From sequence record PV808484.1: a stretch of DNA of 64,000 bases; one strand, 5' to 3'. The stretch comes from a phage. This document shows positions 16,934 through 50,276 of the stretch, piece by piece. The first letter of the stretch is position 1; each line of letters begins with the position of its first letter. The position numbers were made by a program, and so were the translations under genes. The notes beneath the pieces were generated by a model. That model saw only the letters and a program-made list of their open reading frames with translations. It was not told the origin of the DNA and did no database searches.

Positions 16934-16936
16934 GGC

Positions 16937-17042
16937 TTGACATATGCAAACAAGCCCCGTAATATGTACCACATAAAGCGGGGCAACGCCCCATAAGGTG
17001 AAATAAAAAATCACTTGACACCTGAAATCAGTAAGCTATAAT
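16937..17042 (+). promoter_or_regulatory. tandem promoters, first with 5' hairpin
   Basis: TTGACA-17-TAATAT then AAGCGGGGCAACGCCCCAT; second TTGACA-16-TATAAT. Confidence 0.5.
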
Positions 17043-17079
17043 GCTTATATAGATTGAAACATTACTAAGGAATAAAAGC

Positions 17080-17259
17080 ATGGCTATTATTGCAAAGACT
17101 GAGATCGTAGGTTTAGATTCTATCATCCTGGCATATGAGGAAGCTATAGAAATGTATGTGGTTTCCTATGGTGATTATATCCGTGAATATAAATCTATTG
17201 ATCTAGCTTTTGAATGCTATATTCGCCAGGTCAATAAAGCCTATGATGATTATCGTTAA
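17080..17259 (+). CDS. small protein (59 aa)
   Basis: hand-translated MAIIAKTEIVGLDSIILAYEEAIEMYVVSYGDYIREYKSIDLAFECYIRQVNKAYDDYR. Confidence 0.4.
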   Translation: MAIIAKTEIVGLDSIILAYEEAIEMYVVSYGDYIREYKSIDLAFECYIRQVNKAYDDYR

Positions 17260-17354
17260 AAGTTTTAGTCTTGTGCTATTGACAACGAACGATAGTGCAA
17301 GCATAATAACTTTTATCGGGAATACTCCTAACTAATCAAAAGAGATTAAAGACT

Positions 17355-17720
17355 ATGGCTAAAAATATCAATGTTTCTGCTTATGCTACCCTGGCTAACA
17401 CTGCTAAAATTGAACTATCCAGCATTGAAGCGGTACATATTAGCGCCCGTCGCTGGTTTCAAAAGTCTTATGGTAACACTTATTTCTCTTTGATGGTTGA
17501 CGTTGAGATCGGCGGTAAACTGATTGAAGTCGTTAACGTTCCGTTTCACTATGGCTACGGGGATCATTTTGATACCGTTGCCCTAGAAGAGTTTAGCAAG
17601 GTTATCAACCTGGAAGGTAAAGAATTTTCAAATTATGCCTACCTTTCCCGTTTTTGCCGTGATAATGGGATCGCTGTATACAGTCATGCAAGCGATGTTA
17701 AACGTAAAAAAGATTTATAA
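17355..17720 (+). CDS. hypothetical protein
   Basis: 121 aa ORF; TTGACA-type promoter about 17280. Confidence 0.55.
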   Translation: MAKNINVSAYATLANTAKIELSSIEAVHISARRWFQKSYGNTYFSLMVDVEIGGKLIEVVNVPFHYGYGDHFDTVALEEFSKVINLEGKEFSNYAYLSRFCRDNGIAVYSHASDVKRKKDL

Positions 17721-17726
17721 AAAGCA

Positions 17727-17754
17727 TTGACAGCACGAATAAAAAGCGTAAAAT
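17727..17754 (+). promoter_or_regulatory. sigma70-like promoter with no ORF directly downstream
   Basis: TTGACA-16-TAAAAT; followed by about 85 nt structured noncoding sequence. Confidence 0.4.
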
Positions 17755-17840
17755 GTTTCATATCAGGACGGGGAACGAAGTAACACCCCGTTAAGTAGCC
17801 CAGGAGTAAGACACACGAAAAACTCCCCTGATAAAATAGT

Positions 17841-17901
17841 TTGACAATGGTTTCTAATAACGTATAATACTTACATCGAGAGCGGGAACACTTCCCGCCT
17901 C
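17841..17901 (+). promoter_or_regulatory. promoter plus 5'-UTR hairpin cassette
   Basis: TTGACA-16-TATAAT then AGCGGGAACACTTCCCGCC. Confidence 0.55.
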
Positions 17902-17923
17902 ACTGAAAAAAGAGATTAACATC

Positions 17924-18163
17924 ATGGCTAAATCTAAAATGTTCTTAGGTCACAAAAACAAAACTCATTGGAATGTAAGCCTTTGGATCAACAACGATGA
18001 AGGTTTTTATAATCTTGCGCGTGAATTTATCGCAGCTAACACCAATAAGAATGACGCAGCGCGTGATATGATGTTATTTCTTGAAAGTATGGATCAAGAT
18101 AAAACGCCAGACGGATTCAAGTTCAGTAAAACCGCGATCCGTGCCGCTATGGTTGGAATGTAA
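17924..18163 (+). CDS. hypothetical protein
   Basis: 79 aa ORF. Confidence 0.55.
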   Translation: MAKSKMFLGHKNKTHWNVSLWINNDEGFYNLAREFIAANTNKNDAARDMMLFLESMDQDKTPDGFKFSKTAIRAAMVGM

Positions 18164-18258
18164 AGGAGACATAAAAATGAAACATCGTTCGACCTATCTC
18201 ACAAAACGTTTTAGCTTAGATCATAAATTGGGCTATTACGGAAGAAATAGAAAATAAT

Positions 18259-18318
18259 TTGACAACGTTTTAAATTAGTGTAAGATATATCACATAGGGC
18301 GGGAAATGGTTTCCCGCC
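18259..18318 (+). promoter_or_regulatory. promoter plus 5'-UTR hairpin cassette
   Basis: TTGACAACGTTTT...TAAGAT then GGGCGGGAAATGGTTTCCCGCC. Confidence 0.55.
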
Positions 18319-18340
18319 AAATCAAAGAAAGGTTATCATT

Positions 18341-18568
18341 ATGGCTATCATTATTGTTCGCGTATCCGGTACGGTTGGAAGCTCCCAGGTAGTAGCAGTT
18401 ATCACAGAGAAGAAAGGGGATGATCTTCACTCTTCCTTGAATAGTTGGGCGGTCGCTAATTTTGGTCAGTGGTCGAGCGTCGAGTATATCGAATCCTACC
18501 AGGTGCCGACGATTAGCCTAACCGATTTAAATGTTGATCGCTTGTTGTGCCTGGATGGATTAAACTAA
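18341..18568 (+). CDS. hypothetical protein
   Basis: 75 aa ORF. Confidence 0.55.
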   Translation: MAIIIVRVSGTVGSSQVVAVITEKKGDDLHSSLNSWAVANFGQWSSVEYIESYQVPTISLTDLNVDRLLCLDGLN

Positions 18569-18576
18569 AAATAATC

Positions 18577-18633
18577 TTGACAAGATAACTAAAATCAGTA
18601 AAATGTAATGCATAGGGCGGCAATAGTGCCGCT
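18577..18633 (+). promoter_or_regulatory. promoter plus 5'-UTR hairpin cassette
   Basis: TTGACA-16-TAAAAT then CATAGGGCGGCAATAGTGCCGCTCATA. Confidence 0.55.
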
Positions 18634-18655
18634 CATAGTAAGAGAGATTATCAAA

Positions 18656-18871
18656 ATGGCTAATATCCGCACACTGTTAAAAAATGCAAGTCAAGTTTTA
18701 TTTTCAGATGACGAGTATTTCAACAAAGACATTACAGGCGTGAAAAATTTAAAAGACGTGAAGGATGTTATCGGTATCCGTGGATCTTTACGTAAAGGTG
18801 ACATATACGGTAACAAGGTGCAATATAAACTGTCAAAAGATTATGATTTTACTTTGACAATTATCAATTAA
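18656..18871 (+). CDS. hypothetical protein
   Basis: start at internal ATG (MANIRT) downstream of cassette. Confidence 0.5.
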   Translation: MANIRTLLKNASQVLFSDDEYFNKDITGVKNLKDVKDVIGIRGSLRKGDIYGNKVQYKLSKDYDFTLTIIN

Positions 18872-18882
18872 GGGATCACAAA

Positions 18883-19041
18883 ATGAAAACTTGCCAATGT
18901 GGTAAAAAGTCTATCTCTGGTTTAAAACGTGGCGTTGCTCTTTGTCAATATCACTATAACGCTCAAACGTGGGGTAAGCAGTGGGCGGATCAGATGGAAG
19001 AGGCAAAGAAAGAAAATATAAAAGTAGTTGCAAAGAAATAA
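18883..19041 (+). CDS. small Cys-containing protein (52 aa)
   Basis: hand-translated MKTCQCGKKSISGLKRGVALCQYHYNAQTWGKQWADQMEEAKKENIKVVAKK. Confidence 0.4.
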   Translation: MKTCQCGKKSISGLKRGVALCQYHYNAQTWGKQWADQMEEAKKENIKVVAKK

Positions 19042-19112
19042 AAATAAAGTAAACTGTATTCATCAAGGCGGTGGAATAGCCCACCGCCTAACAAAGAGAA
19101 GAGGAAAACATC

Positions 19113-19283
19113 ATGATCACTTTCGCTACCCGTGAAGCCGCTCGCAACGTTGCACGTAAAGTTAACGCCGCCAACCTGGGCGCTACGTTTAAAGCCCCGG
19201 TGAAAGATGAGTCAGGAAAATGGATCTTCCCTGGTCTGCGTCACGCTGATAAGCTGGGAACATTAACGTTAAAAAATAAATAA
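19113..19283 (+). CDS. small protein (56 aa)
   Basis: hand-translated MITFATREAARNVARKV...; preceded by hairpin GGCGGTGGAATAGCCCACCGCC. Confidence 0.4.
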   Translation: MITFATREAARNVARKVNAANLGATFKAPVKDESGKWIFPGLRHADKLGTLTLKNK

Positions 19284-19290
19284 GATCCGC

Positions 19291-19349
19291 TTGACAGTAG
19301 CATGATTTATAAGTAAAGTAACAACAACGGCGGGAAATGGTTTCCCGCC
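19291..19349 (+). promoter_or_regulatory. promoter plus 5'-UTR hairpin cassette
   Basis: TTGACA-17-TAAAGT then GGCGGGAAATGGTTTCCCGCC. Confidence 0.55.
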
Positions 19350-19369
19350 ATCAATAAAGAGATAAGATT

Positions 19370-19729
19370 ATGAAATCAGTAAAAGCAATCAAAACTTACA
19401 TTGTATCGGCTATTTCTTTTGAAGGTACTACAACCGAAAAAGAAAAAATCACCGAACTGATGCGCCGTTTTAATTCTGAATACTGGTATCCCGATAATCA
19501 AAAACGTTACAATTATAACGTGATCAAGGCGATAGCCTCATGGTTACAAGGTTTACCGTCAGACATTAACATCGCCTTTGATTATAACGAGATCGATCAC
19601 TTGTTAATTGAATGGAAGTACATAAAAGAAACAAGCAAAGAAACAACCGTTACCCGTGAGCGGGAAAATTATTGGTTATATATTGCAAGCATGATCGTAA
19701 TCCTGGCAAAACAGCATAACGTGGCGTAA
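19370..19729 (+). CDS. hypothetical protein
   Basis: 119 aa ORF. Confidence 0.55.
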   Translation: MKSVKAIKTYIVSAISFEGTTTEKEKITELMRRFNSEYWYPDNQKRYNYNVIKAIASWLQGLPSDINIAFDYNEIDHLLIEWKYIKETSKETTVTRERENYWLYIASMIVILAKQHNVA

Positions 19730-19743
19730 TTAAGAGGAAGAAA

Positions 19744-19881
19744 CATGAACGCATCACAGCAGATCGAAAAATTCAACCGCAGCAAGGCGCGTAAAGATTG
19801 GAACGAAGAGATCACCAAAAAAGGCGACAAGCGGAACAAAACAAAAAGAGATCGCAGCACAAAAAGACACTGGAACGAATA
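19744..19881 (+). CDS. small basic protein (45 aa)
   Basis: hand-translated MNASQQIEKFNRSKARKDWNEEITKKGDKRNKTKRDRSTKRHWNE; terminator follows. Confidence 0.35.
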
Positions 19882-19887
19882 ACAAAA

Positions 19888-19910
19888 AAGGGCGCAATAA
19901 GCGCCCTTTT
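19888..19910 (+). terminator. rho-independent terminator
   Basis: AGGGCGC-AATAA-GCGCCCT then TTTTA. Confidence 0.6.
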
Positions 19911-20000
19911 AGCTTATATAGAGGCTTGTTACCCATAGGCAATGGTAACGCCAGGGCAAGCCTATAAACAACGTTAGACGGCTTTACAGGAGCTTTAAAA

Positions 20001-20183
20001 ATGAGATTAGAAGAAATAAGCAAGGCACTAGCCCAGGGGCAAAGGTTATGCGCCAGATATCGTGATCAATATGGCTTCATAACTAGCGGCGTGATCCTGG
20101 GGATTGAAGGCAATAAGATTTTTATTGACACGTTGAAAAACGTTGTATATAGTGACAATATAATCTCAATAAAACATATATGA
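20001..20183 (+). CDS. hypothetical protein
   Basis: 60 aa ORF. Confidence 0.45.
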   Translation: MRLEEISKALAQGQRLCARYRDQYGFITSGVILGIEGNKIFIDTLKNVVYSDNIISIKHI

Positions 20184-20593
20184 GGCAAGAAATGAAAAAC
20201 TTATTGATCGCTGGTTTACTCTCTTTTGGTATGGTTGGAACATCTAGCGCGGCGATATCCTCCACAGTAGCAGAATTAAGCGCCGTTGATGCAATGGAAA
20301 ACGTCATGCTTATTAATAATGCGATCCCCGATGAAATCATGGAGGATTCACACATGATCGCTTATGGTGCTGTTACACAACTAACGGCAAAAATAGATAA
20401 ATCTATTGTTAATGGCTTAAATGAAGATGTACCATGTGAAATTATTACCAGTGTGCTTACTACTCAAAATTTTACGCCGTGGTTAAAAAGTATTCAAAAA
20501 GTACACAGTACAGCCGCAGATCGTAGCAATGAAAAACTAGTGTCAGCACTTGCAACGTATACCCTAGCAAAATGCACCGAGATAAAAGATTGA
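20180..20593 (+). CDS. predicted secreted protein
   Basis: N-terminal KNLLIAGLLSFGMVGTSSA signal-peptide-like segment. Confidence 0.5.
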   Translation: MRQEMKNLLIAGLLSFGMVGTSSAAISSTVAELSAVDAMENVMLINNAIPDEIMEDSHMIAYGAVTQLTAKIDKSIVNGLNEDVPCEIITSVLTTQNFTPWLKSIQKVHSTAADRSNEKLVSALATYTLAKCTEIKD

Positions 20594-20616
20594 CAACATA
20601 GAAAGCACGTTATAAG
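20590..20616 (+). promoter_or_regulatory. sigma70-like promoter
   Basis: TTGACA-15-TATAAG, then AAGGAG SD. Confidence 0.45.
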
Positions 20617-20640
20617 ATACACACAACAAAGGAGAACTAC

Positions 20641-20943
20641 ATGAACGGCATAGCTAAAACGTTTTTTCTTTTTTCTGGTGTAAATGATCCATCAATAAAA
20701 GTCGATAGTGTAAAAGAAAACAATACTATCACCGCTAAATTGTTTCAAGATGAAACAAATAACGTGCTAATCATTAATCTTAAAGAAATAACTAAAGGTT
20801 ATTATACTATTGCTTACCATGCAATCTATCATGCTGGTACTAGTGAGGAAGTGCAAACAAGCAACAACGAAAGCGCGGCGCTACCTGGTGATCTGGTGCT
20901 GGGCGTTATCAGTTTAATTGTCAATGATTTTTTTAAGGAGTAA
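20641..20943 (+). CDS. hypothetical protein
   Basis: 100 aa ORF. Confidence 0.55.
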   Translation: MNGIAKTFFLFSGVNDPSIKVDSVKENNTITAKLFQDETNNVLIINLKEITKGYYTIAYHAIYHAGTSEEVQTSNNESAALPGDLVLGVISLIVNDFFKE

Positions 20944-20947
20944 AACC

Positions 20948-21043
20948 ATGCCCTATTTACATTTATTTTTCGGTATCTTATTGACAGGATCTTTTTTCTT
21001 CTGTATGCTTGTTTCTATTGTAAACCACGTTTTAAGACATTAA
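20948..21043 (+). CDS. small hydrophobic peptide (31 aa)
   Basis: MPYLHLFFGILLTGSFFFCMLVSIVNHVLRH. Confidence 0.3.
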   Translation: MPYLHLFFGILLTGSFFFCMLVSIVNHVLRH

Positions 21044-21052
21044 GGAAACAGC

Positions 21053-21172
21053 ATGAAAATTATTCCCGTACAATATAGCGTAATAAATCCAGCATACGAG
21101 GAAGGAAGGAAAACAAGCATGGCTTTATGTTGTATTGCTACTATAGCCATGTTGTTATGCATTGTGTTTTAA
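21053..21172 (+). CDS. small hydrophobic peptide (39 aa)
   Basis: MKIIPVQYSVINPAYEEGRKTSMALCCIATIAMLLCIVF. Confidence 0.3.
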   Translation: MKIIPVQYSVINPAYEEGRKTSMALCCIATIAMLLCIVF

Positions 21173-21272
21173 TAGGTTTTATAGTTGTACGCTTTAAAGG
21201 CTTGACAATTTTTTGTTATGCTTTAAACTATATCTTGAAAACGGCAAAGGCCGCAAACAAAAGGGTAAAATT

Positions 21273-21596
21273 ATGAAATCTGTGATCGGTGTTTATTTGG
21301 ATAACTCTGATTTTTTCTATCATCGCGCTCGTTTCCTTGATGCGATTGAAATGATAGAATCAGGCTTTAAAGAGTATCGCCTTGCACATGATGACCTGGA
21401 AGCATTACAGGGCAATAGTGTTTTTACATTGCAAGCTAAAGCACTATGCAAAAGCCGGATCGACATTGCGAGCAAAAAGATAGAACGCGGCATGTCCTGG
21501 TTGCGCACCGCAGAAATCAACATGGGGCAATGGTACGGCGAAAACTTAGAAAATAAACATGCTTTTGTCAATGTAGAAAATATTGAAGATTATTGA
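21273..21596 (+). CDS. hypothetical protein
   Basis: start at internal ATG (MKSVIG) after AAAGGG SD. Confidence 0.5.
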   Translation: MKSVIGVYLDNSDFFYHRARFLDAIEMIESGFKEYRLAHDDLEALQGNSVFTLQAKALCKSRIDIASKKIERGMSWLRTAEINMGQWYGENLENKHAFVNVENIEDY

Positions 21597-21658
21597 TTGA
21601 CAGCACACCTAACGGGTAGTATATTGTATCTCATAGAGCGGGGAAATGGTTTCCCCGC
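21597..21658 (+). promoter_or_regulatory. promoter plus 5'-UTR hairpin cassette
   Basis: TTGACA-17-TATATT then GCGGGGAAATGGTTTCCCCGC. Confidence 0.55.
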
Positions 21659-21678
21659 CATCAATAAAGAGATAAGCT

Positions 21679-21963
21679 ATGAAGATCACAAAAGCACTTT
21701 CCAACTATGCAGCACGTCGCGGATTATGTTTAACCGTTGAAAATTTAGGGAAAGAAGATTTTTTGTGCTTTTGGGAGCTTGAGAATGATAATGAGTGGAT
21801 CTTCTCTTATTCTATCTGCGAAGATCAAAACGGTTGTTTATTAACCTGGCGCGGTAATATCTATCTACCGGAAGAAATCAAAGAAGAATTACCAGGCACG
21901 ATCATGACTGAGAAACAGCTTAAGGAAGTGATCAATTTTGTAGGGCAAAACATTAAAAAATAA
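21679..21963 (+). CDS. hypothetical protein
   Basis: 94 aa ORF. Confidence 0.55.
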   Translation: MKITKALSNYAARRGLCLTVENLGKEDFLCFWELENDNEWIFSYSICEDQNGCLLTWRGNIYLPEEIKEELPGTIMTEKQLKEVINFVGQNIKK

Positions 21964-21964
21964 T

Positions 21965-22022
21965 TTGACAGCAGAAAAACAACGTAGTAAAGTTTATCAC
22001 ATAGGGCGGCAATAGTGCCGCT
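21965..22022 (+). promoter_or_regulatory. promoter plus 5'-UTR hairpin cassette
   Basis: TTGACA-17-TAAAGT then CATAGGGCGGCAATAGTGCCGCTCATA. Confidence 0.55.
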
Positions 22023-22044
22023 CATAACAGAAGAGAAACAAATC

Positions 22045-22215
22045 ATGATCCCGACTATGTTTTATGTATCGCGCAAAGGTCACAATATTTTTTGGTCTGA
22101 AGATTTAAATGAAGCCATGACGTTTGCCCGTGATCGTGTTGCTATCGGTGGCGTTAACATTACTGTAACCGATGAAAATGGCATTGAATACTATAACGGC
22201 GACGATGAAGAGTAA
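22045..22215 (+). CDS. small protein (56 aa)
   Basis: start at ATG (MIPTMF) downstream of cassette. Confidence 0.45.
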   Translation: MIPTMFYVSRKGHNIFWSEDLNEAMTFARDRVAIGGVNITVTDENGIEYYNGDDEE

Positions 22216-22260
22216 TTAACAAGGCGGGGAGTATTCCCGCCGTCAATAAAGGATAATATC

Positions 22261-22398
22261 ATGAAAACTTTCAACGCAACAGCATCAACAATTGGTTATA
22301 TTATCACCGTGCAAGCTATTGATCTAGTAGCTGCAACAAACAAGATTAAAAACATGATCCCTGTAGGCAGTGATTTTTCCGTTTGGGAAGTAAAATAA
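22261..22398 (+). CDS. small protein (45 aa)
   Basis: MKTFNATASTIGYIITVQAIDLVAATNKIKNMIPVGSDFSVWEVK; hairpin GGCGGGGAGTATTCCCGCC upstream. Confidence 0.35.
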   Translation: MKTFNATASTIGYIITVQAIDLVAATNKIKNMIPVGSDFSVWEVK

Positions 22399-22401
22399 AT
22401 C

Positions 22402-22463
22402 TTGACAGTGATTTGTTATTTGATAAGATGTACTACGTAGGGCGTGGCAATAAGGCAACGCCC
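22402..22463 (+). promoter_or_regulatory. promoter plus 5'-UTR hairpin cassette
   Basis: TTGACA-17-TAAGAT then GGGCGTGGCAATAAGGCAACGCCC. Confidence 0.5.
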
Positions 22464-22484
22464 CACATCAGAAAGGGAAAGATT

Positions 22485-22721
22485 ATGACTATAGCAACAG
22501 TATTAACCGCCGTTAAAACCGCCGAATCATCCGGCTTGCATGTTGAGATTATAGATCAACCAGGTGGCGATCTCCTTGTCCAGGTTTACCCGCCGAAAGT
22601 AGGGGATGATTATTATTGGTGCTATTCTGATACGTTCGAACAAGTAGACACGAAAGCGATCACGGCTTTTATTTTAAAAGCTATTGAAGAAAATAACTTT
22701 CATTATAACATCAATCAATAA
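22485..22721 (+). CDS. hypothetical protein
   Basis: start at internal ATG (MTIATV) after AAAGGG SD. Confidence 0.5.
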   Translation: MTIATVLTAVKTAESSGLHVEIIDQPGGDLLVQVYPPKVGDDYYWCYSDTFEQVDTKAITAFILKAIEENNFHYNINQ

Positions 22722-22763
22722 ACCATAAGCGGGGCAGTAACGCCCACTAATGAGGGTAAAATC

Positions 22764-22868
22764 ATGTTAGAGAAAATTTTCACGGTTGTAGTAGTGGGCC
22801 TGGCGTTATCGGTTGGAGTGGTTGCAACTATGGCTAACATGATTCTATCTTCTCACGGTATTGGATAA
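22764..22868 (+). CDS. small hydrophobic peptide (34 aa)
   Basis: MLEKIFTVVVVGLALSVGVVATMANMILSSHGIG. Confidence 0.3.
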   Translation: MLEKIFTVVVVGLALSVGVVATMANMILSSHGIG

Positions 22869-22878
22869 GGTGAATCAA

Positions 22879-23094
22879 ATGATCACGAATAAGACAGGTA
22901 AAACAGAATTTTTACGCGGCTTGCAAATAGGTAAACCTGAGATCTGGCATTGCACTAAATCCGCGCATAATGAAATGAAAGATTTTACCGCTACTTTACA
23001 ACGTGTTAAAATATCTATCACACAGAAAAAAGCCTTGTTAGTAGTAGAAAACGAGATCCCGCAAACTATTATTATTGTCGAGCGTACAGCATGA
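22879..23094 (+). CDS. hypothetical protein
   Basis: ATG (MITNKTG) with AAGGTG SD. Confidence 0.5.
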   Translation: MITNKTGKTEFLRGLQIGKPEIWHCTKSAHNEMKDFTATLQRVKISITQKKALLVVENEIPQTIIIVERTA

Positions 23095-23477
23095 AAACAG
23101 AAATCATTATTGAAATCATCAACGGTTATAAAGAAGCCTTTATTTTTGCTGAATCCGCCAGGGATCATGAAGGTAATTTTATTGATAACTTGACTGATTA
23201 TGATTTTTCAGATCAAGCCCATCAGCGGATCATTCATGACGTAGCGGCTTATTGTGATGCCAATGATGCCGCTATCTCTGAGGCAATGAGCGACGGCGCA
23301 ACAGCCAACCAGATCGGGAATGATTTACATTTTACCCGTAATAGTCACGGCGTAGGCTTTTGGGATCGCCCTGAAATATACACTACTAACACCGCCAACC
23401 GCTTAACTAATGCAGCTAAATTGATGCCATCGGTGCATGCTTACATTGGTGAAGATAATTTGATTTATATTGAATAA
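23091..23477 (+). CDS. hypothetical protein
   Basis: 128 aa ORF; ATGA overlap. Confidence 0.55.
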   Translation: MKTEIIIEIINGYKEAFIFAESARDHEGNFIDNLTDYDFSDQAHQRIIHDVAAYCDANDAAISEAMSDGATANQIGNDLHFTRNSHGVGFWDRPEIYTTNTANRLTNAAKLMPSVHAYIGEDNLIYIE

Positions 23478-23483
23478 AAAGTA

Positions 23484-23542
23484 TTGACACCGATCCCCAA
23501 TATGGTACTATTTACCACGTAGGCGGGAAATGGTTTCCCGCC
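23484..23542 (+). promoter_or_regulatory. promoter plus 5'-UTR hairpin cassette
   Basis: TTGACA then GGCGGGAAATGGTTTCCCGCC. Confidence 0.55.
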
Positions 23543-23565
23543 AGGTAATCAAAAAGGTAAATACT

Positions 23566-23955
23566 ATGCGCAACCTGGTTTCTGTTTCTAACGTTGAAAA
23601 ATTTCAATCTTTACAGGGTATCGTTAACAACGTAGCGCCTTTTTTAGTCAACGGCTTGATTGCAAAGATGAAAAATAAACATCATGCGGCATGGTCTGCT
23701 TACTGCTTTGATAATGATGAAAAAGCGGCTGAAATGATGTTAAATATGCTGTTAGACAGTGTAGAATCATCTTTACCGGAAAACATCGCAGAAGAGATCA
23801 CCTATCGTTATAATATGGCGATCACTTACCAGGAGGTTGCGCAATTTAATATGATGGACGATGACGAACAACAGGATCAGGAAATTTTCTGGGAGTATGC
23901 AGATCGTCAATCGGCTTTTGATGAAAAGTTAGCGATGTATTATAACGAATATTAA
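23566..23955 (+). CDS. hypothetical protein
   Basis: start at internal ATG (MRNLVS). Confidence 0.5.
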   Translation: MRNLVSVSNVEKFQSLQGIVNNVAPFLVNGLIAKMKNKHHAAWSAYCFDNDEKAAEMMLNMLLDSVESSLPENIAEEITYRYNMAITYQEVAQFNMMDDDEQQDQEIFWEYADRQSAFDEKLAMYYNEY

Positions 23956-23970
23956 TACACGGTAAAAGAA

Positions 23971-23997
23971 AGGGGCGCACTAAGCGCCCTTTTTTGT
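23971..23997 (+). terminator. rho-independent terminator
   Basis: GGGCGC-ACTAA-GCGCCC then TTTTTTG. Confidence 0.7.
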
Positions 23998-24341
23998 ATT
24001 CTTTTTTCACAATGGAAGCGACACGTAAAGAATAGGCGTAAAAGGTGGCGTAAAACCATCTAAAACCGACTGTAACCGCTTAAACAAGGCAGGGATGATT
24101 AATCCCCTTACCAGGATGAAAAAGCTGTTAGAGAGCTATTCATAGCGTTTAAAGCACATAGGAAATAATTTGCTTTTTATCTTGCCTTTTATCCTGCTTT
24201 TGATTATTATTATGGAACGGGCGGCACCTGGGGACAGGGGAAGATAATCACCGGAAGATCCCGCTATATATTGATAGCTAATACCTATTAAACAACAAAA
24301 CATCAAAGGGATAAACTATCAAATCTTTACAATCCTACCTA

Positions 24342-24400
24342 TTGACACACGATCACCCTTATACTAATATGTATCCCGTAGGCGGGAAATGGTTTCCCGC
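24342..24400 (+). promoter_or_regulatory. promoter plus 5'-UTR hairpin cassette
   Basis: TTGACA-17-TAATAT then GGCGGGAAATGGTTTCCCGC. Confidence 0.55.
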
Positions 24401-25150: not shown

Positions 25151-25357
25151 TACCTAAATAAAGATGATAGCTTTTACCTATCAAAAACATTCACCGAAAA
25201 AAGTGAATAGATCGCGGTATCGAGCTAATCAAGGAGCAGATGAACAACCATACCATGAAGATCATAAGGCGCTTACAACGTGTTTTAAACCGCTTATTTT
25301 TAATTTCTCCATGTAACTATCTGGCAAAAACAGCCTTTTTCGTGTCTTTCCTCTTAA

Positions 25358-25430
25358 GTGATAATCATTCTTATTTATAGCTGATTATTTATGCAATAAA
25401 CTGCATAATGCAATAATGATAATCATTCTT
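25358..25430. promoter_or_regulatory. Fur-box-like palindromes
   Basis: GTGATAATCATTCTTA and AATAATGATAATCATTCTT; the latter 16/19 to Fur consensus. Confidence 0.5.
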
Positions 25431-25440
25431 AACTTATGAC

Positions 25441-25790
25441 CATCTAACCTATAAAATAATAAGTTATCTAACTAAATTAAAGCTAATTATTTCACCTTTA
25501 TTTATAACTTACTGTTACTATCTCATTGATAACCTTATATTAAACAACAATAACTAATATAAATCATTACTAAGCTAAATATAATCTATCTAACCTTTAA
25601 AACTATAACTATAATCTATCGAATTGTTGCACAAAGTAACTATTAAATTGTTAGTAACATTACTAAATAATTCATATCCTATCTATTTATGATCTAATCT
25701 TTACTTTCCTATCTATTACCTAAATAATCCTATCATACAGTTACCATTTCATGTAATAATCATTTCATACAATAACTATAACAAGAAATA
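25441..25790. repeat. G-depleted AT-rich low-complexity tract
   Basis: about 4 percent G on plus strand; degenerate ATCTATC / CTAACCT motifs. Confidence 0.55.
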
Positions 25791-25808
25791 TAATTCGCAA
25801 GCGTATCA

Positions 25809-25982
25809 TTAGCAGCCTATGCCGGACACATAGGCGGCTAATAATAACGCAACTACACACCCCACATAATAACCATCACCGATAGTTATTATTTGTGCTT
25901 ATGTAGCTTGCAACAATTGCAAGCGCAACAATATACATGGTATATTGTATCCCTTACATTGTTGCGGTGCGTTATTATTAGC
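25809..25982. repeat. nested inverted repeats (structured noncoding element)
   Basis: hairpin TTAGCAGCCTATG-CCGGACA-CATAGGCGGCTAA; palindrome GCTTGCAA-CAA-TTGCAAGC; 14-bp inverted pair GCTAATAATAACGC / GCGTTATTATTAGC. Confidence 0.5.
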
Positions 25983-26296
25983 TAATGTTTGGAACATTGG
26001 CTATAATATAAGCTAAATAATAAGCTATTCAATAATAAACATAATGAATAATGACACTGATGATCATAATGCGCCACCTTCCAGGGGGCGCTATGTGAAC
26101 ACAAAGAAATCTTTCTTGTCAAGAAAAATATTAACACTATTGCGCAAAATTATTTATGTCTGAATAGATGATTTTTCATACTATTGTTATTATTTATCGG
26201 CCCTAACTATTGCCTATTTGTTGAGCCTACTTTCTTAAAAGCGCAATAAATCAGAATTATCTTGATTTTTAGGGTGTTTTATAGTATAGAAAATAT

Positions 26297-26317
26297 GCAA
26301 ATGATAATCATTATCAG
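26297..26317. promoter_or_regulatory. Fur-box-like site (near consensus)
   Basis: GCAAATGATAATCATTATCAG; 16 contiguous matches to Fur consensus. Confidence 0.55.
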
Positions 26318-26481
26318 CTATCTTCCACGGGTGGCACTATTTCACGCAGGATCATTTCATTTGGCAAGGTGTATATAGATGTTTAGACTTGCCAAGCCAT
26401 TGATTTACTTAGAATTTATCTGTTTTGTTGTGAGTAGTACCTTTCTTGCTCAGAAAATAATCAAAAGTCTTATAAGTCATT

Positions 26482-26513
26482 GAATGATAATGCAAATGAT
26501 AATTATTCTCATT
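26482..26513. promoter_or_regulatory. Fur-box-like site
   Basis: GAATGATAATGCAAATGATAATTATTCTCATT. Confidence 0.45.
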
Positions 26514-28371: not shown

Positions 28372-28548
28372 ATGGATAAACAAACTACTGTGTACTTAGT
28401 AACAAAGAATACCCCAGGCTGGAGCCAATGCAGCACTGTCCCTTACAAGATTTGTGCAACATTAGAACTAGCACAACGCGCAGAAGCAGAAGTGGATGCC
28501 ATGCAATACAGCTATGGTGAGATCATTCCTTTTACTCTTGAACAATAA
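28372..28548 (+). CDS. small protein (58 aa)
   Basis: MDKQTTVYLVTKNTPGW...; AGAGAGGAAAAG SD. Confidence 0.4.
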   Translation: MDKQTTVYLVTKNTPGWSQCSTVPYKICATLELAQRAEAEVDAMQYSYGEIIPFTLEQ

Positions 28549-44798: not shown

Positions 44799-45119
44799 TT
44801 AACAAGTAATATTGGGAGTAACAATTGGATTAACAATTGGAGTAATAGGGTACGTAAACCAAGGGCTTCCAATTTCCCAAGGATAATAAGGTCTACGAGG
44901 ATCGTATGGAGGAGTTACTTCAGGCTTTTTCCAAATCTCCGCTAATTGTTTCTTCCATTTATCCCTTGCTGTCTCATTATCTTCATCCAACTGTTCATCA
45001 TTATCTTTTATTTCTGGTTTTGGAAATAAAAGCTCTTTGACTAATTCAACATCTTCCGTCTCAATAGTAGTTTCTTTCGTAAGTTCTCCTACTGTTTCTT
45101 TAATTGTGATTTTATACAT
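44799..45119 (-). CDS. hypothetical Pro-rich protein
   Basis: 106 aa; Pro/Thr-rich C-terminus. Confidence 0.5.
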   Translation of the reverse strand: MYKITIKETVGELTKETTIETEDVELVKELLFPKPEIKDNDEQLDEDNETARDKWKKQLAEIWKKPEVTPPYDPRRPYYPWEIGSPWFTYPITPIVNPIVTPNITC

Positions 45120-45862
45120 TAGTCCTCCTCTAAAGTAGAATAAAATTGTAACGTATTTGAATCATCAAAATATGCAAAGGTTAAATTACCATTGAAGCAA
45201 GATCCTGTGTCCATATATACCCTATTACTGCTAATCACAGGTTTAGGAACATAAGAATGCCCGTGAAATACATAATCTACTCCTGAAACCCTAGGAAGAA
45301 GAATTCCTTCAAGTGCGCAATCTATCATATCACGATCCCACATTAAAGATTCTGTGAATCGAGAAACTTGCTCTTTATTCATATTCAAACAAAATGGCAA
45401 AACTTCTGTCACTGGCAAATGTTCCAAAACTGAAGGATACCCACCGTGAATAAAGCCTAGTTTCATATTACGATAATTGACAACAAGTACAACAGGTAAA
45501 TCTTCTAGCATCAAAGCAAGAGCAGTTGCACCCTCTTCTCCACACTCGTCTAGAACTGTATGGCCTCCGTTCTGAAACCAACATTCGTAATATCGTCTAT
45601 CACCTTCTAGCAACCCTTTAATCATCATATCTTCATGGTTCCCACGAATAGCATAACGATTTAGCTTTCTGGTGAATTCAACAACACAACGAAAATTCTG
45701 CTTGCCGCGATCTGTAAGATCTCCTAAAGATACAACAACATCTTGATCTCGGATACCTAAAGTATTAACACCTTTCTGGTACAAATCAAAGCAACCATGT
45801 AAATCACCAATAATAAACAGGTCTTGATCATCTTTTACACTAATTTCTTGATATACTAACAT
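45119..45862 (-). CDS. Ser/Thr protein phosphatase (calcineurin-like)
   Basis: IIGDLHGC, GDLTDRG, RGNHE metallophosphatase motifs; ATG chosen one codon in from TTG. Confidence 0.75.
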   Translation of the reverse strand: MLVYQEISVKDDQDLFIIGDLHGCFDLYQKGVNTLGIRDQDVVVSLGDLTDRGKQNFRCVVEFTRKLNRYAIRGNHEDMMIKGLLEGDRRYYECWFQNGGHTVLDECGEEGATALALMLEDLPVVLVVNYRNMKLGFIHGGYPSVLEHLPVTEVLPFCLNMNKEQVSRFTESLMWDRDMIDCALEGILLPRVSGVDYVFHGHSYVPKPVISSNRVYMDTGSCFNGNLTFAYFDDSNTLQFYSTLEED

Positions 45863-46188
45863 CAACTCTCCTCAAAATCCATAAGTATAAAGATATTAAC
45901 TTTACCTTCTATATTATGTTCTACAACAAGATCTGCAAATTCTTTGTAGGCTTTTTCTTCTATTTGTTCAATGTGAGACGCTACATCTTTGTATATAGCG
46001 TCACCATCTACTTTAACAAGGAGGAATAGAGATCTTACTTCAATCTCTTTATTTTTACGGGGTAGAAAATCGACGGCTTCTTGTATACGCCAGCCGAGAT
46101 ACCCTGGAGTCCTTTGAATATCCTCCAAATGACTTTCTAAGATTTCCCTTCCTTTGTCTATTAAAGCCTGTTCTGTCGTTATTTTCAT
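45862..46188 (-). CDS. hypothetical protein
   Basis: 108 aa ORF. Confidence 0.55.
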   Translation of the reverse strand: MKITTEQALIDKGREILESHLEDIQRTPGYLGWRIQEAVDFLPRKNKEIEVRSLFLLVKVDGDAIYKDVASHIEQIEEKAYKEFADLVVEHNIEGKVNIFILMDFEES

Positions 46189-46198
46189 CCCCTTCTCC

Positions 46199-46771
46199 TT
46201 AATGTGTTAATGAAACTGCGTAGCTAAACACAGGTTCAGATATTACATCGGCTACAGTAATAAAAACGTCTTCGTCTTGAGTTGTTTCTACACGACATAC
46301 AGTTACACCATTCACCACGAATTCAACGCAATGTGGAATATTTTCACAAACGAAGGTAGTGTAAGTAACACCCAAAGCATCATACAAAGATTTAACAGTG
46401 TTTGCAAGTGCCGCAGTTTCTTCTTTTTCTGAGACAATGAATGCTGTAACAACAAGATTGTTTGCATAGTTTAGACTGTCCTCTATAGCCAATGATTTAC
46501 AAGGTAGTAATGCAAAATATTTACCTGGTTTAATCAGACCTGCTTCCCATTGATTCAAAATTGCCTGGGATGGTTTAGTAATATAAAACAGATTTTCACT
46601 TGGGTTATCAATATTACTTCTGGCGATACAACGTGAAGGATTATTAATATCAAACACATGATCAAAATCTACACAAACAGGTAAACTGAAAGGTGTGAAT
46701 TTTTTACCTAATAATCCTATGGCTGATAATATGTTTGCTGTGCTTATCTTCCCGTTAAAAGCTAAACGCAT
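46199..46771 (-). CDS. hypothetical protein
   Basis: 190 aa ORF. Confidence 0.55.
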   Translation of the reverse strand: MRLAFNGKISTANILSAIGLLGKKFTPFSLPVCVDFDHVFDINNPSRCIARSNIDNPSENLFYITKPSQAILNQWEAGLIKPGKYFALLPCKSLAIEDSLNYANNLVVTAFIVSEKEETAALANTVKSLYDALGVTYTTFVCENIPHCVEFVVNGVTVCRVETTQDEDVFITVADVISEPVFSYAVSLTH

Positions 46772-46782
46772 ATTTAACTCCT

Positions 46783-46986
46783 TTAACTAGCAACCGTAAC
46801 TTCCGAACTTTCTTCTTTCGTACTGTCTACGATATGCCTGGTGGCAATATACGAGACTTGCCAGTTACCATCTGGTGTAGTCTCAATAAGTACCCTATCT
46901 ACTTCGAGAAAATGCAAAAATTCAACCATCGCTCGCTTCGATAGGAATTGTTTTTTAACAGTCTCCTCAAAAGATTGAACTGCCAT
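46783..46986 (-). CDS. hypothetical protein
   Basis: 67 aa; GGAGGAAA SD. Confidence 0.5.
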   Translation of the reverse strand: MAVQSFEETVKKQFLSKRAMVEFLHFLEVDRVLIETTPDGNWQVSYIATRHIVDSTKEESSEVTVAS

Positions 46987-46995
46987 GTTTCCTCC

Positions 46996-47658
46996 TTATT
47001 TAATATTCAATTTTGCACAAAGACGTTGTACCGCTTTGGCATCGAACAAACTCCCACGAATAGTTCTCTTTCCTGATTCATTCAGATGCTTTGCAATCGT
47101 CATATATGGCGTTTTACAAGCTCTGTATGCAACTAAAGAATCTTTTAAAGAAAGCGCAAACTCTCTTGAGCGTTTTGCTTCTTCCGTTTTCGTATAATCT
47201 GTTCTTTTGTATTTAGGGTTTGCTGCACCAAGAAGCGTTCCCTTCGCTTTTGCTACCTTAAGGCTCTTCTTAACACGATCAGATATTGCACGAGCCTCTT
47301 CTTCTGCCAGAACTGCTAAAATATTTATTATCATATTTTCAGCGGAGGGCATAGTTGCTATTCGTACATTAATCATCTCTAACAAGGTTGCAACAGAAGC
47401 TGTGTTACGTCCAAGACGGTCAACCTTAGCAACAACAAGTGTAGCACCTGTTTCTTTGCAAAGATTAACAGCTTTTACAAGCTCTCTACGTTGCTTCCAA
47501 TCGCCTTTACCCGAATAAAACTCTGCAAAGCTACCTACAATAGTATAATTTTCTTGTGAATCCAGGAAGCGTTGAATATCTGCTTCCTGTGATTCTATAC
47601 CATACTGGTTGCCTTGTTGTTTCTTCTTAGAAAGTCGATGATATAGTACAAACTTCAT
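46996..47658 (-). CDS. serine recombinase (resolvase/invertase family)
   Basis: N-terminal YHRLSKKKQ with catalytic Ser, VAKVDRLGRN, C-terminal HTH-like segment; GGAGGG SD. Confidence 0.8.
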   Translation of the reverse strand: MKFVLYHRLSKKKQQGNQYGIESQEADIQRFLDSQENYTIVGSFAEFYSGKGDWKQRRELVKAVNLCKETGATLVVAKVDRLGRNTASVATLLEMINVRIATMPSAENMIINILAVLAEEEARAISDRVKKSLKVAKAKGTLLGAANPKYKRTDYTKTEEAKRSREFALSLKDSLVAYRACKTPYMTIAKHLNESGKRTIRGSLFDAKAVQRLCAKLNIK

Positions 47659-47715
47659 AATACCCTCCTGTTCTGTTACAGGAAGTATGCACTACCTTAA
47701 TGTTAAAGTCAACAG

Positions 47716-47919
47716 TTAAGTAGTGGTAATATCATCCTCTTGAATACCAGGGTCAACTTCTGCAAAGATAGCCTCTACAGGAATTTCTTCACCTGCTATT
47801 CTAGAAAGAAGCACTGAACCAATAGCTTTTGCGTGTTCTTCGGATTCCGCATAAACATTAGTTCCTGTGTCTTTTTTCTTAGTTTCGTTAAAATATACCA
47901 GATAGTAATTGTATGCCAT
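47716..47919 (-). CDS. hypothetical protein
   Basis: 67 aa ORF. Confidence 0.45.
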   Translation of the reverse strand: MAYNYYLVYFNETKKKDTGTNVYAESEEHAKAIGSVLLSRIAGEEIPVEAIFAEVDPGIQEDDITTT

Positions 47920-48170
47920 TATTCATCCCAATCGTTGTTACGAGCACTTTCAAGAACCTTGACAACTTCTGCATACTCTACAGCTAAACCAGCACACACT
48001 TCAGCTTGTTTTGCAATTGCTTGTTTAAAGAACATAGCGATTGCAACACTCTGTGTTGTGTGAATGTTATCTGCTTTAGTTGATACATGAAGATCAAAAT
48101 CTTCTTCATCAAAGGTGAGTTCCATAGTAACAATAAATTTCTCGGTCATAAAAATGCTCCTCTTAAACAA
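47919..48170 (-). CDS. hypothetical protein
   Basis: 83 aa ORF. Confidence 0.5.
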   Translation of the reverse strand: MFKRSIFMTEKFIVTMELTFDEEDFDLHVSTKADNIHTTQSVAIAMFFKQAIAKQAEVCAGLAVEYAEVVKVLESARNNDWDE

Positions 48171-48672
48171 AATAGAAAGGTTGAGTTAAACCCAGCCTGT
48201 TTTTTGGGTCGTAGACGTACCAAGCATATGCTGTCTTATCAGTACCACCTGCAACAAAAGATGGTCGTTCAGAAAGAACAATCAAATTTGTTGGTGGATT
48301 CTGTTTATGGAATTCCCTTCGTTTAATAGACTCTAGGAACCCAAGACGCAACAAGTATATGCAAACGTCTGCTTCTTTTAAGCTCTTTTGCAAGAACTCA
48401 AGTGCAAGTTTGAATGGGGGATTTGTGATTATAATATCCGGCTTAGTATGCCATTCGTGGTTAAAATAATCTTTCCCTTCTTCTAACTCACAATATTCTG
48501 ATCCTTCTGGAAAATGTTGATAAATTGCAGCAGCAGCGCCTTTACACGGTTCTGCAAAAATAAAACCTTCTTCTTTAAGGTTATTAAAATCTATTACACT
48601 AAATAATGCATTTATACATTTTTGTGGAGTAGGATAGTAATCAGTTGGTGGACGATCATACTTATTTGCCAC
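48163..48672 (-). CDS. small DNA N6-adenine methyltransferase (probable GTG start)
   Basis: DYYPTP and IIITNPPF motifs; GAGGAG SD. Confidence 0.6.
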   Translation of the reverse strand: MANKYDRPPTDYYPTPQKCINALFSVIDFNNLKEEGFIFAEPCKGAAAAIYQHFPEGSEYCELEEGKDYFNHEWHTKPDIIITNPPFKLALEFLQKSLKEADVCIYLLRLGFLESIKRREFHKQNPPTNLIVLSERPSFVAGGTDKTAYAWYVYDPKNRLGLTQPFYFV

Positions 48673-49090
48673 TACTTAAAATCTCCTCTTTTGTGATTTC
48701 AGGGTCTTCTTCAAAAACCATAATATCTCTTAAGAACGTTAATTCTTCCATAGATACTGGTATTGTATCTTCTTCTGTTTTTCGTTTACATAAATCGTCA
48801 AGAAAGTTTTTAAAGTTTTCTGACAAGTCGTAAAATTTCAACAGTTGATAATCACAGGAGGAGATCCTATCTAGTTCTAACATTCTTTCTAAGATATTTT
48901 CTGTGTTGCCGTACAACACACGAACTTCTCCGAAAGGGTTGACTAAATATTGTGAAGTTCTGAACCATCCCTTTTTAGATACAGTGTAACGCTGTTCTGC
49001 TAAACTTTCAATAAAATTTTTAGCTCTTTTACAGTTTTGTTCTAAAGAGTAGTAGGCTTTTTCTACAAAGTTTACAGGTACTGGTAACAT
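48662..49090 (-). CDS. hypothetical protein
   Basis: 142 aa; AGGAGGAG SD. Confidence 0.55.
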   Translation of the reverse strand: MLPVPVNFVEKAYYSLEQNCKRAKNFIESLAEQRYTVSKKGWFRTSQYLVNPFGEVRVLYGNTENILERMLELDRISSCDYQLLKFYDLSENFKNFLDDLCKRKTEEDTIPVSMEELTFLRDIMVFEEDPEITKEEILSSGK

Positions 49091-49105
49091 ATCTCCTCCT
49101 AATAA

Positions 49106-49120
49106 CCCCCCTTGAGGGGG
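49106..49120 (-). terminator. intergenic hairpin abutting RBS
   Basis: CCCCC-CTTGA-GGGGG directly 5' of AGGAGG SD. Confidence 0.4.
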
Positions 49121-49131
49121 TTTATACTAGA

Positions 49132-49785
49132 TTAATTATCAGAGGACACTTTATCAAGTTTTTCAGAGACTGTCAATACTTTTTCTTGTGATTCTTTCAT
49201 TTCTGCTAAAATACTTTCAGCTTCATCACTATCAGGATCACCAGTCAACAGCATACTAATTAGTTGCTCCTTGCTGAAGTTCAGAATATCTTCCGCTGTT
49301 AACTCCAGTTGTTCTTCGATCTCTTCGATAAAAGTTTCACCGCCTGAAAAAGCATCTCGCAGTTTTGCAACTTCCATCGCTTCTTCTGGGGTTGCCCCAG
49401 CGTCTAAAGCTGCTAAAGCAAAATCTGCCCCACTACCCACAGCATAATAATCTTCAGTTAAAGGATATGCTCGCGTTGGATTATTACCCTCGTGCATATA
49501 AATTTTACCGTCTGGGTGAACAACCAATGCCACAAACTCTTCATCTTCTTTATCAGGATCTGACTGGATCACCAAACCTGGGATTGTCTCTTGTGCTGCT
49601 TGGCATTGTAAGTTTTGTTCGAACCAAGAAAAGAAAGTCAGGATAGAAGACAGACGTCCTGCACCACCAACAAGGTAATCCCCAATTTTACGCACTTTCT
49701 TGAAATTTAAAGTGTCTACACGACTACCTACTGTTACCTTACCGTCAGACAGAATTTTGTTACGTGTTGCAATAATTGTTGTCAT
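49132..49785 (-). CDS. HslV/proteasome beta-like Ntn peptidase
   Basis: N-terminal MTTIIATR, DGKVTVG, KVRKIGDYLVGGAG, AVGSGADFALAA align with HslV blocks. Confidence 0.65.
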   Translation of the reverse strand: MTTIIATRNKILSDGKVTVGSRVDTLNFKKVRKIGDYLVGGAGRLSSILTFFSWFEQNLQCQAAQETIPGLVIQSDPDKEDEEFVALVVHPDGKIYMHEGNNPTRAYPLTEDYYAVGSGADFALAALDAGATPEEAMEVAKLRDAFSGGETFIEEIEEQLELTAEDILNFSKEQLISMLLTGDPDSDEAESILAEMKESQEKVLTVSEKLDKVSSDN

Positions 49786-50276
49786 TATACTTCCTCCTGT
49801 AGTGTTTTAAGGACTGCTTTACCACCGCTTACATATTTACGGAGGTAATCAATAGCTCTTAGTGTTTCTTTATCCACAAGAATTTTATTAGTTCTTGTTA
49901 GTGGATGATTTAGTAAATCACTGCAATTTCTTACTAACATAGATTTCTTGTGAAAGATACTGCTAAGAAAAAGAAGTTTAGAATCTTCTTCATCAATCAG
50001 GAGTAATTCTGAATTAGACCCAGCTATATTTATTATACACTCAAACAAGCCTTCTTGACTATCAGATAATTCCTGGTAATATTTAGTTAGCCAATCCTCG
50101 CCTTTTAACCAACTAAAAAACATCTGAACTTTTTGCAAAGTTGTCATGTTCTCTAAACGAAGAGATATTTCTTTTTCAATCTTGTCAATATAAATCTGTC
50201 TAAACTCATTCGGCTTAACTAAGCCAGCTTGATAGCATTCATCAATACCATTGCGATCAATCTCAATTAGCGTCAT
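49785..50276 (-). CDS. hypothetical protein
   Basis: 163 aa ORF. Confidence 0.55.
   Translation of the reverse strand: MTLIEIDRNGIDECYQAGLVKPNEFRQIYIDKIEKEISLRLENMTTLQKVQMFFSWLKGEDWLTKYYQELSDSQEGLFECIINIAGSNSELLLIDEEDSKLLFLSSIFHKKSMLVRNCSDLLNHPLTRTNKILVDKETLRAIDYLRKYVSGGKAVLKTLQEEV

Follow-up and report, generated by a model that had tools for sequence, protein, structure and literature searches.

The 64,000-nucleotide stretch of phage DNA analysed here (PV808484.1, hereafter the window) encodes on its minus strand a small serine recombinase of 220 amino acids (open reading frame 46996..47658), known as gp053 in phage phi92 and as 'putative site-specific recombinase' in phage EmilieFrey. A palindrome, TCCTGT-TCTGTT-ACAGGA, is located 8 nt upstream of the ATG of this gene, at 47666-47683. 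A preliminary description of the window had recognised both, and had likened the palindrome to the crossover sites of Gin/Hin-type invertases. The palindrome is most likely not a DNA crossover site. Judging from the sequence, we lean slightly towards another role, in which it would act as a leader hairpin that sequesters the ribosome binding site (RBS) of the recombinase gene and is coupled to the gene's own promoter.

The window was 100% identical to the genome of EmilieFrey (Bas61, MZ501063.1) over the tested stretch and corresponds to record positions 64001-128000. The phage is a phi92-like Justusliebigvirus of the subfamily Stephanstirmvirinae. Whole-genome searches were done on the complete EmilieFrey genome, rebuilt at 146,666 bp. 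The preliminary description had seen no partner of the palindrome in the window and had proposed that one be sought genome-wide. No second copy of the 18-mer at up to three mismatches was found in the window, in the related alia genome or in the complete EmilieFrey genome. In the latter, the nearest match has 4/18 mismatches, and a search with a 26-mer returned nothing under 7 mismatches. One site in each genome is enough for a resolution system, so the lack of a partner in the genome cannot refute it.

Promoter and proposed leader hairpin

The gene had been placed mid-operon. It does lie within a long leftward string of genes, but it is preceded by its own predicted sigma-70-type promoter (47684..47712, minus strand). 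A consensus scan identified a -35 element, TTGACT, at 47712-47707 and a -10 element, CATACT, at 47689-47684, separated by a 17-nt spacer, and the coding strand reads TTGACT-N17-CATACT-TCCTGTAACAGAACAGGAGGGTATT-ATG. The arrangement TTGAC[AT]-N16-18 followed by a -10 is found 52-62 nt before the ATG in 14/15 related lineages. As this motif is kept amid unrelated surrounding sequence, we take the promoter to be real and conserved. Its consensus-type sequence points to early transcription by the host RNA polymerase. No terminator was found before the recombinase gene.

The predicted leader hairpin, P2 (47664..47685, minus strand), consists of a 5' arm CUUCCUGU (47685-47678), a loop AACAGA (47677-47672) and a 3' arm ACAGGAGG (47671-47664). 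Its stem of eight pairs takes in the palindrome, and the 3' arm contains the Shine-Dalgarno (SD) sequence AGGAGG (47669-47664). The 5' arm abuts the -10, starting at the last bases of the hexamer. The -10 ends at 47684, which places the expected start of the promoter's own transcript near 47677, within the loop of the hairpin. Folding of the 81-nt RNA from 47640-47720 gave -23 kcal/mol (z = -3.5). The SD has a pairing probability of 0.98, the third highest among 82 genes of the window (top 4%). A T to C polymorphism within the genus, present in alia and PD06 (TCCTGC), falls on the pair that closes the loop, and SD occlusion stays at 0.98.

The same design, realised in different sequences, was found in the relatives L097, L099, L015 and L103, where a 5' arm abuts or overlaps the -10 and a 3' arm holds the SD. 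The stem is AAUCUCCUCU-aucaac-AGAGGAGAUU in L097 (72% identity), AUCCUCUAAUCA-uuaacu-UGAUUAGGGGAU in L099 (57% identity) and AAUACCUCCA-N14-UGGAGGUAUU in L015 (37% identity), and L103 (38%) carries a long stem. SD-pairing stems of differing sequence are also present in L009 and ESCO13, and the stems are not position-homologous across lineages. The common denominator among the relatives is complementarity to the SD rather than a shared half-site. In the stems of the window and of L099, the sense strand departs from perfect pairing solely by U.G wobbles, which RNA tolerates but which would count as mismatches in a DNA dyad; this suits an RNA element. Furthermore, RBS pairing in the large-phage subgroup of homologues exceeds that of control genes (median 0.72 versus 0.43, Mann-Whitney p = 0.0023), with values of at least 0.85 in 33% of the subgroup and 5.7% of the controls.

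This layout suggests how the hairpin could work. The gene's own transcripts, starting at about 47677 in the loop, would lack the 5' arm and be translatable. Read-through RNAs from upstream genes would contain both arms, fold back over the RBS and block translation. Such a fold-back would shield recombinase production from transcription entering from outside and hold it at a low level, in a manner like that of the IS10 transposase.

Several observations weigh against the hairpin. SD occlusion was rejected as a trait of the whole family, for which the mean is 0.49 against a background of 0.52, and is seen in the large-phage subgroup only. It is low in L011/L012, L101, L102 and KP13-16, and moderate in the nearest sisters L104 and L002. 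The start near 47677 follows from promoter geometry only, and a start located farther upstream would make the hairpin a plain attenuator and not an insulator. The leader is also so short that a dyad with its centre anywhere from the -10 to the ATG must cover the SD, which would allow for an operator at the DNA level. In addition, a loose pattern, [AC]C[TC]T[AC][AC]TGT, is common to the half-sites of P2 and those of a second dyad, P1, 33 bp away, and this could mean that P1 and P2 are both protein sites.

A bare palindrome of this kind is statistically ordinary. The window contains 36 perfect palindromes with a 6-bp stem and a 6-nt loop, compared with 23 +/- 4 in shuffled sequences, and 252 if loops of 3-8 nt are allowed. 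At this abundance any 57-nt spacer has a chance of about 15% of holding one. TCCTGT-N0-20-ACAGGA pairs occur four times in the genome, where the hexamer ranks 32nd of 4096 for such pairs. The palindrome is absent in the closest sisters, L009 (87% identical enzyme) and phi1_175008 (78%), in which the promoter block TAGTGCATACT and the SD are retained. All this would fit a palindrome that has no function, being a 6-bp inverted repeat that arose by chance in a short leader rich in A/T, with an incidental SD overlap. We consider this quite unlikely. The gene ranks too high among the window genes for SD occlusion, and independent lineages have SD-containing stems right after the -10 (p = 0.002 for the subgroup), which speaks for the leader hairpin.

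Two of the four pairs are in lateral tail-fibre genes (TCCTGT-N10-ACAGGA; L095, EmilieFrey record 20859-20880 and 28469-28490). They have the arms of the palindrome but lack flank similarity, and with the hexamer ranking only 32nd the pairs were rejected as sites and regarded as fortuitous.

The recombinase and its distribution

gp053 is an already annotated, real and intact serine recombinase of phi92-like lytic coliphages, and dozens of GenBank records list it as 'DNA invertase', 'resolvase' or 'putative site-specific recombinase'. The catalytic domain and E-helix (residues 4-141; 47236..47649, minus strand) were delimited by a match to Pfam Resolvase (PF00239; E = 8.4e-22; score 78.3 bits, cut-off 23.3), an AlphaFold (AF2) model and Foldseek, in agreement with the family named in the preliminary description. 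In an alignment of 33 homologues, reaching down to 31% identity, conservation is complete or at least 90% at residues Y6, R8, S10, Q24, D80, R81, R84, E121 and R128. Comparison with relatives of 99% and 78% identity gave ratios of nonsynonymous to synonymous substitution rates (dN/dS) of 0.057 and 0.050, respectively. gp053 is therefore under strong purifying selection, and the enzyme looks catalytically competent.

The AF2 model of gp053 (mean predicted local distance difference test score, pLDDT, of 88) has a long helix at residues 108-138, followed by four short helices. Its best Foldseek match is Bxb1 integrase (251 columns), followed by other integrases, and the catalytic domains of Sin, TP901-1 and Bxb1 are among the matches. 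Sequence matches in the PDB are weak (Sin, 1e-5; Tn3, 2e-5; gamma-delta, 7e-5; Gin, 3uj3, 8e-4). They stop at about residue 156 or before, and hence cover the catalytic domain and E-helix only. The Pfam scan returned no match to HTH_7 in gp053 at E <= 1, and the best NCBIfam match is CcrB, far under its cut-off.

The C terminus (residues ~158-216; 47011..47187, minus strand) is predicted to be a helical DNA-binding module equivalent to the first half of the 'Recombinase' domain of large serine recombinases. This domain, PF07508, is matched by the last ~45 residues of 23/33 family members, over profile positions ~5-50 of 102. Family members P0075 and P0077 exceed the gathering cut-off, the latter with 30.9 bits (cut-off 21.1). 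gp053 ends at residue 220, without the remaining half of this domain, a zinc ribbon or a coiled coil. By sequence profile and structural model, gp053 is thus assigned to a 'mini large-serine-recombinase' type, in which the catalytic domain and E-helix are followed by a short helix-turn-helix (HTH) corresponding to the first half of the Recombinase domain. This architecture is neither that of a Gin/Hin invertase, nor of a Tn3-type resolvase, nor of an integrase.

By tblastn, the recombinase gene was found in 162 phage records, and its conservation extends over the Stephanstirmvirinae and to other large phages. Identities are 99-100% in Justusliebigvirus (56 records), 78% and 51% in Klebsiella phages, about 57% in Phapecoctavirus and 30-37% in large Vibrio phages, and there are other carriers. 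The region 45000-50000 is collinear in 56/56 Justusliebigvirus genomes. Gene order around the recombinase is completely conserved in Klebsiella phage phi1_175008 and partly in KP13-16, L011 and a 134-kb IMG/VR contig, with HslV-like and DprA-like genes close by. Synteny is gone in ESCO13, and the neighbours of the recombinase differ in Phapecoctavirus. The neighbourhoods of three metagenomic homologues were uninformative, two being on phage-like or gene-poor contigs and one having no telling neighbours.

In phage Schickermooser (L088, NC_048196.1, 1300-2046) the N-terminal half of the gene contains several frameshifts and the catalytic serine is gone, while the C-terminal 128 codons are intact. 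The surviving 128-residue reading frame is annotated separately and, according to the record's annotation, is identical to phAPEC8_0049. The recombinase gene is a pseudogene in a viable phage lineage, that of Schickermooser and, per annotation, phAPEC8. This decay makes it an accessory, dispensable gene.

The decay in the phAPEC8 lineage, the altered neighbours in Phapecoctavirus and the existence of plasmid-borne homologues would all fit a remnant of a transposon or integrative element, as the preliminary description had offered, or a selfish mobile gene without a role for the phage. We regard this as very unlikely. The low dN/dS and the synteny conserved in phi1_175008, and partly in KP13-16 and L011, beside the HslV-like and DprA-like genes disfavour it, as does the conserved dedicated promoter. 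Flanking repeats were not found, and the region had no match in 5,426 complete E. coli genomes, so that there is no sign of integration into a host attB site (lysogeny) either.

The phages are described as strictly lytic (PMC5374246). The literature on gp053 consists of guesses only, or overlooks the gene altogether. One article contains the unreferenced guess of a "resolvase keeping concatemers single" (PMC10282059), and two others state that no recombinase is present (PMC5374246 and PMC10269720).

Candidate sites and probable role of the enzyme

Upstream regions of the homologues were scanned for 38-bp dyads with a free 2-bp centre, at least 13/18 symmetric positions and a centre 15-85 nt before the start codon. 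Such a dyad was found at 16/77 non-redundant homologue loci but in only 0.29% of control windows (72-fold). The 'YYRVST' members have the consensus dyad GTACA-N9-AACG-NN-CGTT-N9-TGTAC, whose core ACGNNCGT is 10-fold enriched upstream, with one site per locus. The consensus dyad is located 30-65 nt upstream of the recombinase start in L018, L026, L029, L032, L046, L047, L052, L056, L061, L070, L071, L086 and L090. It is probably the cognate site of the YYRVST branch, an uncharacterised small serine-recombinase family.

At the gp053 locus the only candidate is P1 (GCACTACCTTAATGTTAA-AG-TCAACAGTTAAGTAGTGG, 47689..47726), an imperfect 38-bp dyad with 13/18 symmetric positions and a centre that falls in the -35, 49 nt upstream of the ATG. 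With 19 such dyads in the whole 146.7-kb genome, ~0.009 would be expected per 70-nt window. P1 lacks the ACG-NN-CGT core. A P1-type dyad at the -35 was also considered as a recurrent feature of the closest subgroup and was not found there. P1 is therefore a weak candidate for an operator or recombination site.

A scan for half-sites found an 11-bp copy of the outer arm of P1 (CCACTACTTAA, 48669..48679), inverted relative to TTAAGTAGTGG at 47716-47726 (chance ~0.03). The two 11-bp repeats bracket gp054, gp055 and a small DNA methyltransferase gene. The 0.95-kb interval between them is inverted in 0/56 genomes, and the copy at 48669-48679 is probably fortuitous. A perfect 17-bp inverted repeat, CTTGTAACACCCTCAAT-N30-ATTGAGGGTGTTACAAG, was observed on the 6.4-kb Synechococcus plasmid pIITB3_2 (L092, 3410-3490), where 4 nt separate its end from the start codon of a recombinase with 36% identity. 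It is likely a binding or resolution site of different geometry.

The sites of serine recombinases are classically located just upstream of the gene and double as operators, as in the res sites of Tn3 and gamma-delta. The palindrome could likewise be bound by gp053, either as an operator or accessory subsite beside P1, in a two-subsite and res-like arrangement, or as the sole crossover site with its partner on another genome copy. In support of this, distant relatives have the 38-bp dyad upstream of the gene, the centres of P1 and P2 are 33 bp apart with the shared half-site pattern seen on sequence inspection, and sister L002 has a different 12-5-12 palindrome over its -10. The missing second genomic copy is no argument against a resolution site. 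We nevertheless find binding by the recombinase unlikely, if somewhat less so than a chance palindrome. The sequence is not kept in lineages in which enzyme identity is 78-87% and the C-terminal helices hardly differ, the genus polymorphism breaks the dyad, and the arms are 4-9 bp from the centre, far tighter than the 38-bp family geometry or gix/hix. The family members show one site, a second subsite was not seen among them, the U.G wobbles suit an RNA element, and what the relatives have in common is SD complementarity and not a half-site. The RBS-sequestering hairpin is therefore preferred for the palindrome itself.

As for the enzyme, the resolution system mentioned in the preliminary description stays the best guess, although the palindrome as its crossover site is not supported. 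Full-length homologues of ~35% identity are present on small 6-7-kb plasmids, which suggests a resolvase-like role. On the 7.3-kb Phaeobacter plasmid pP18_i the homologue adjoins rep and parA/RHH, the usual place of a multimer-resolution function on a plasmid. gp053 is probably resolvase-like, acting on one site per genome copy, and might serve in multimer resolution or as an aid to circularisation. It counts against this role that it derives from the context of plasmid homologues that are only ~35% identical. A wider proposal is that gp053-type proteins are natural minimal serine recombinases (~220 residues) that act on one simple ~38-bp promoter dyad without accessory subsites, early in infection, and would circularise or monomerise the genomes of virulent phages like Cre/lox. 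We put this forward as a rather doubtful proposal.

The likeness to a Gin/Hin-type crossover site did not hold up. HTH_7 is missing in gp053, and the palindrome is polymorphic in the genus and lacking in sisters at 78-87% enzyme identity. Taken with the spacer, the left arm (TTCCTGTAAC) looks similar to a gix half-site, TTCCTGTAAACC, a likeness that we treat as a lead only. Paired inverted sites of ~26 bp flanking an adjacent segment, as used by Gin and Hin, were not found at this locus. The preliminary description had also considered an invertible switch with its other site elsewhere. No partner was found genome-wide, the 56 collinear genomes contain no inverted repeats or invertible segment beside the gene, and 12 distant loci showed no convincing inverted repeats near it. 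Exact or near-exact repeats across the genome were terminators, promoter-hairpin cassettes and Fur-box-like arrays only, without a res-like cluster near the gene. The distance from tail-fibre genes noted earlier was correct, as these are located at record 19-35.6 kb and the recombinase at record 111 kb.

A remote switch could still be sought in a segment of ~870 bp at 8683-9553, which has the orientation of the window in 24 records and is inverted in ~32 Justusliebigvirus records. The segment, with flanks at 8617-9690, comprises a divergent promoter region, two small reading frames and a DUF2829-like N-terminal module (labelled by eye). The inversion moves this module between a leftward and a rightward gene. 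It is fused to the leftward gene in the window, and to the rightward gene, a homologue of 9657-9995, in phi92, alia, muut and others. It is highly improbable that gp053 is an invertase acting on this segment. The breakpoints lack inverted repeats, and each arrangement has a private junction, with a new SD and ATG in the alia form and 136 bp of unique promoter/RBS sequence in the window form. Neither the palindrome nor P1 is copied near the segment, and gp053 lacks an invertase DNA-binding domain. The two orientations differ by 4-7%, compared with 97-100% identity within one orientation, which indicates a fixed, old rearrangement. With unclean junctions and diverged alleles, the segment was rejected as an invertase substrate and is not a switch run by gp053.

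Other elements of the window were noted in passing. About a dozen early-promoter cassettes are located on the plus strand at 15085-24400, each with an A-rich upstream element, TTGACA-N16/17-TAAGAT or TAATAT, and then 'tatcacatag'. A GC-rich stem-loop (GGCGGGAAAtggTTTCCCGCC or GGGCGGCAatagTGCCGCTC) follows ~10 nt past the -10, and early transcripts probably carry it at their 5' end. Resemblance to the E. coli Fur box (GATAATGATAATCATTATC) was seen at 14095-14166, 25412-25430 and 26297-26315, with five matches at up to three mismatches against 0.03 expected, and a cluster of overlapping palindromes near 14050-14170 is among them. They may reflect iron-responsive control or titration of Fur by the phage. 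A region of ~1.2 kb at ~25317-26510 is AT-rich and poor in reading frames. It contains short tandem repeats of the AATAA type and, at 25800-26030, a dense cluster of palindromes and hairpins that are unrelated. An Rfam scan of this non-coding region gave nothing above chance and no tRNA was found in it; it could be an origin or a regulatory region.

Significance and comparison with known systems

Strictly lytic phages of 150 kb that keep an intact site-specific recombinase under strong purifying selection pose a biological puzzle. The question also has a practical side, as recombinase genes are red flags in phage-therapy screening and phi92- and phAPEC8-like phages are therapy candidates. The lack of integrase-specific domains, the lack of a copy in the E. 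coli genomes searched and the dispensability of the gene in phAPEC8 together argue against a lysogeny module. The analysis offers a testable regulatory model, the fold-back hairpin, and a candidate site. The recurrent 38-bp dyad, as the probable cognate site of a very small serine-recombinase family, could interest genome engineers, since the gp053-type family would, if the proposal is true, be a compact recombinase-plus-simple-site toolkit.

The closest parallel for the leader is IS10 (Tn10). In that element, RNAs that enter from outside pair back onto the RBS of the transposase (Davis, Simons and Kleckner 1985, as cited in PMC13181058). An inverted repeat that pairs with the RBS of a recombinase-type gene is common to both, here by prediction. 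According to the same citation, the promoter of IS10 starts inside the repeat and only outside transcripts are silenced, a layout that gp053 would share. The difference is that a serine recombinase in a gene string of a lytic phage takes the place of a transposase at the end of an element, and that the mechanism is deduced here from sequence only.

For the enzyme, the Tn3 and gamma-delta resolvases with their res sites share with gp053 the Y-x-R-x-S catalytic domain, the D/R cluster and the E-helix, as well as dyads before the gene that overlap its promoter. Their logic of one site per replicon would also fit gp053. However, the C terminus of gp053 is not HTH_7, and the similarity (E ~1e-5) ends at ~residue 156 or before. 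Moreover, the spacer is only 57 bp and holds two unlike dyads (P1, 38 bp; P2, 18-22 bp), and hence is not a three-subsite res of ~114 bp.

With the large serine recombinases Bxb1, phiC31 and CcrB, gp053 shares an N-terminal insertion (RLSKKKQQGNQYG...SQ) and C-terminal helices corresponding to the start of the Recombinase domain. It differs from them in its size of 220 residues and in lacking the second Recombinase half, the zinc ribbon and the coiled coil. In large serine recombinases, these parts determine directionality and the selectivity for attP and attB.

The likeness to Gin, Hin and Cin with their gix and hix sites is that of a small phage-borne serine recombinase. Here, however, there are no paired 26-bp sites, no invertible segment and no Gin-type HTH, and the arms of the palindrome are 3-4 bp nearer to the centre than those of gix. 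The match to Gin (3uj3) is limited to the catalytic domain, and the gene is distant from the tail-fibre genes.

The comparison with Cre/loxP of phage P1 is one of functional analogy only. In that system a phage-encoded recombinase acts on one simple site per genome, in circularisation and dimer resolution. Cre is a tyrosine recombinase and phage P1 is temperate, whereas gp053 is a serine recombinase of a lytic phage and its lox-like site is putative.

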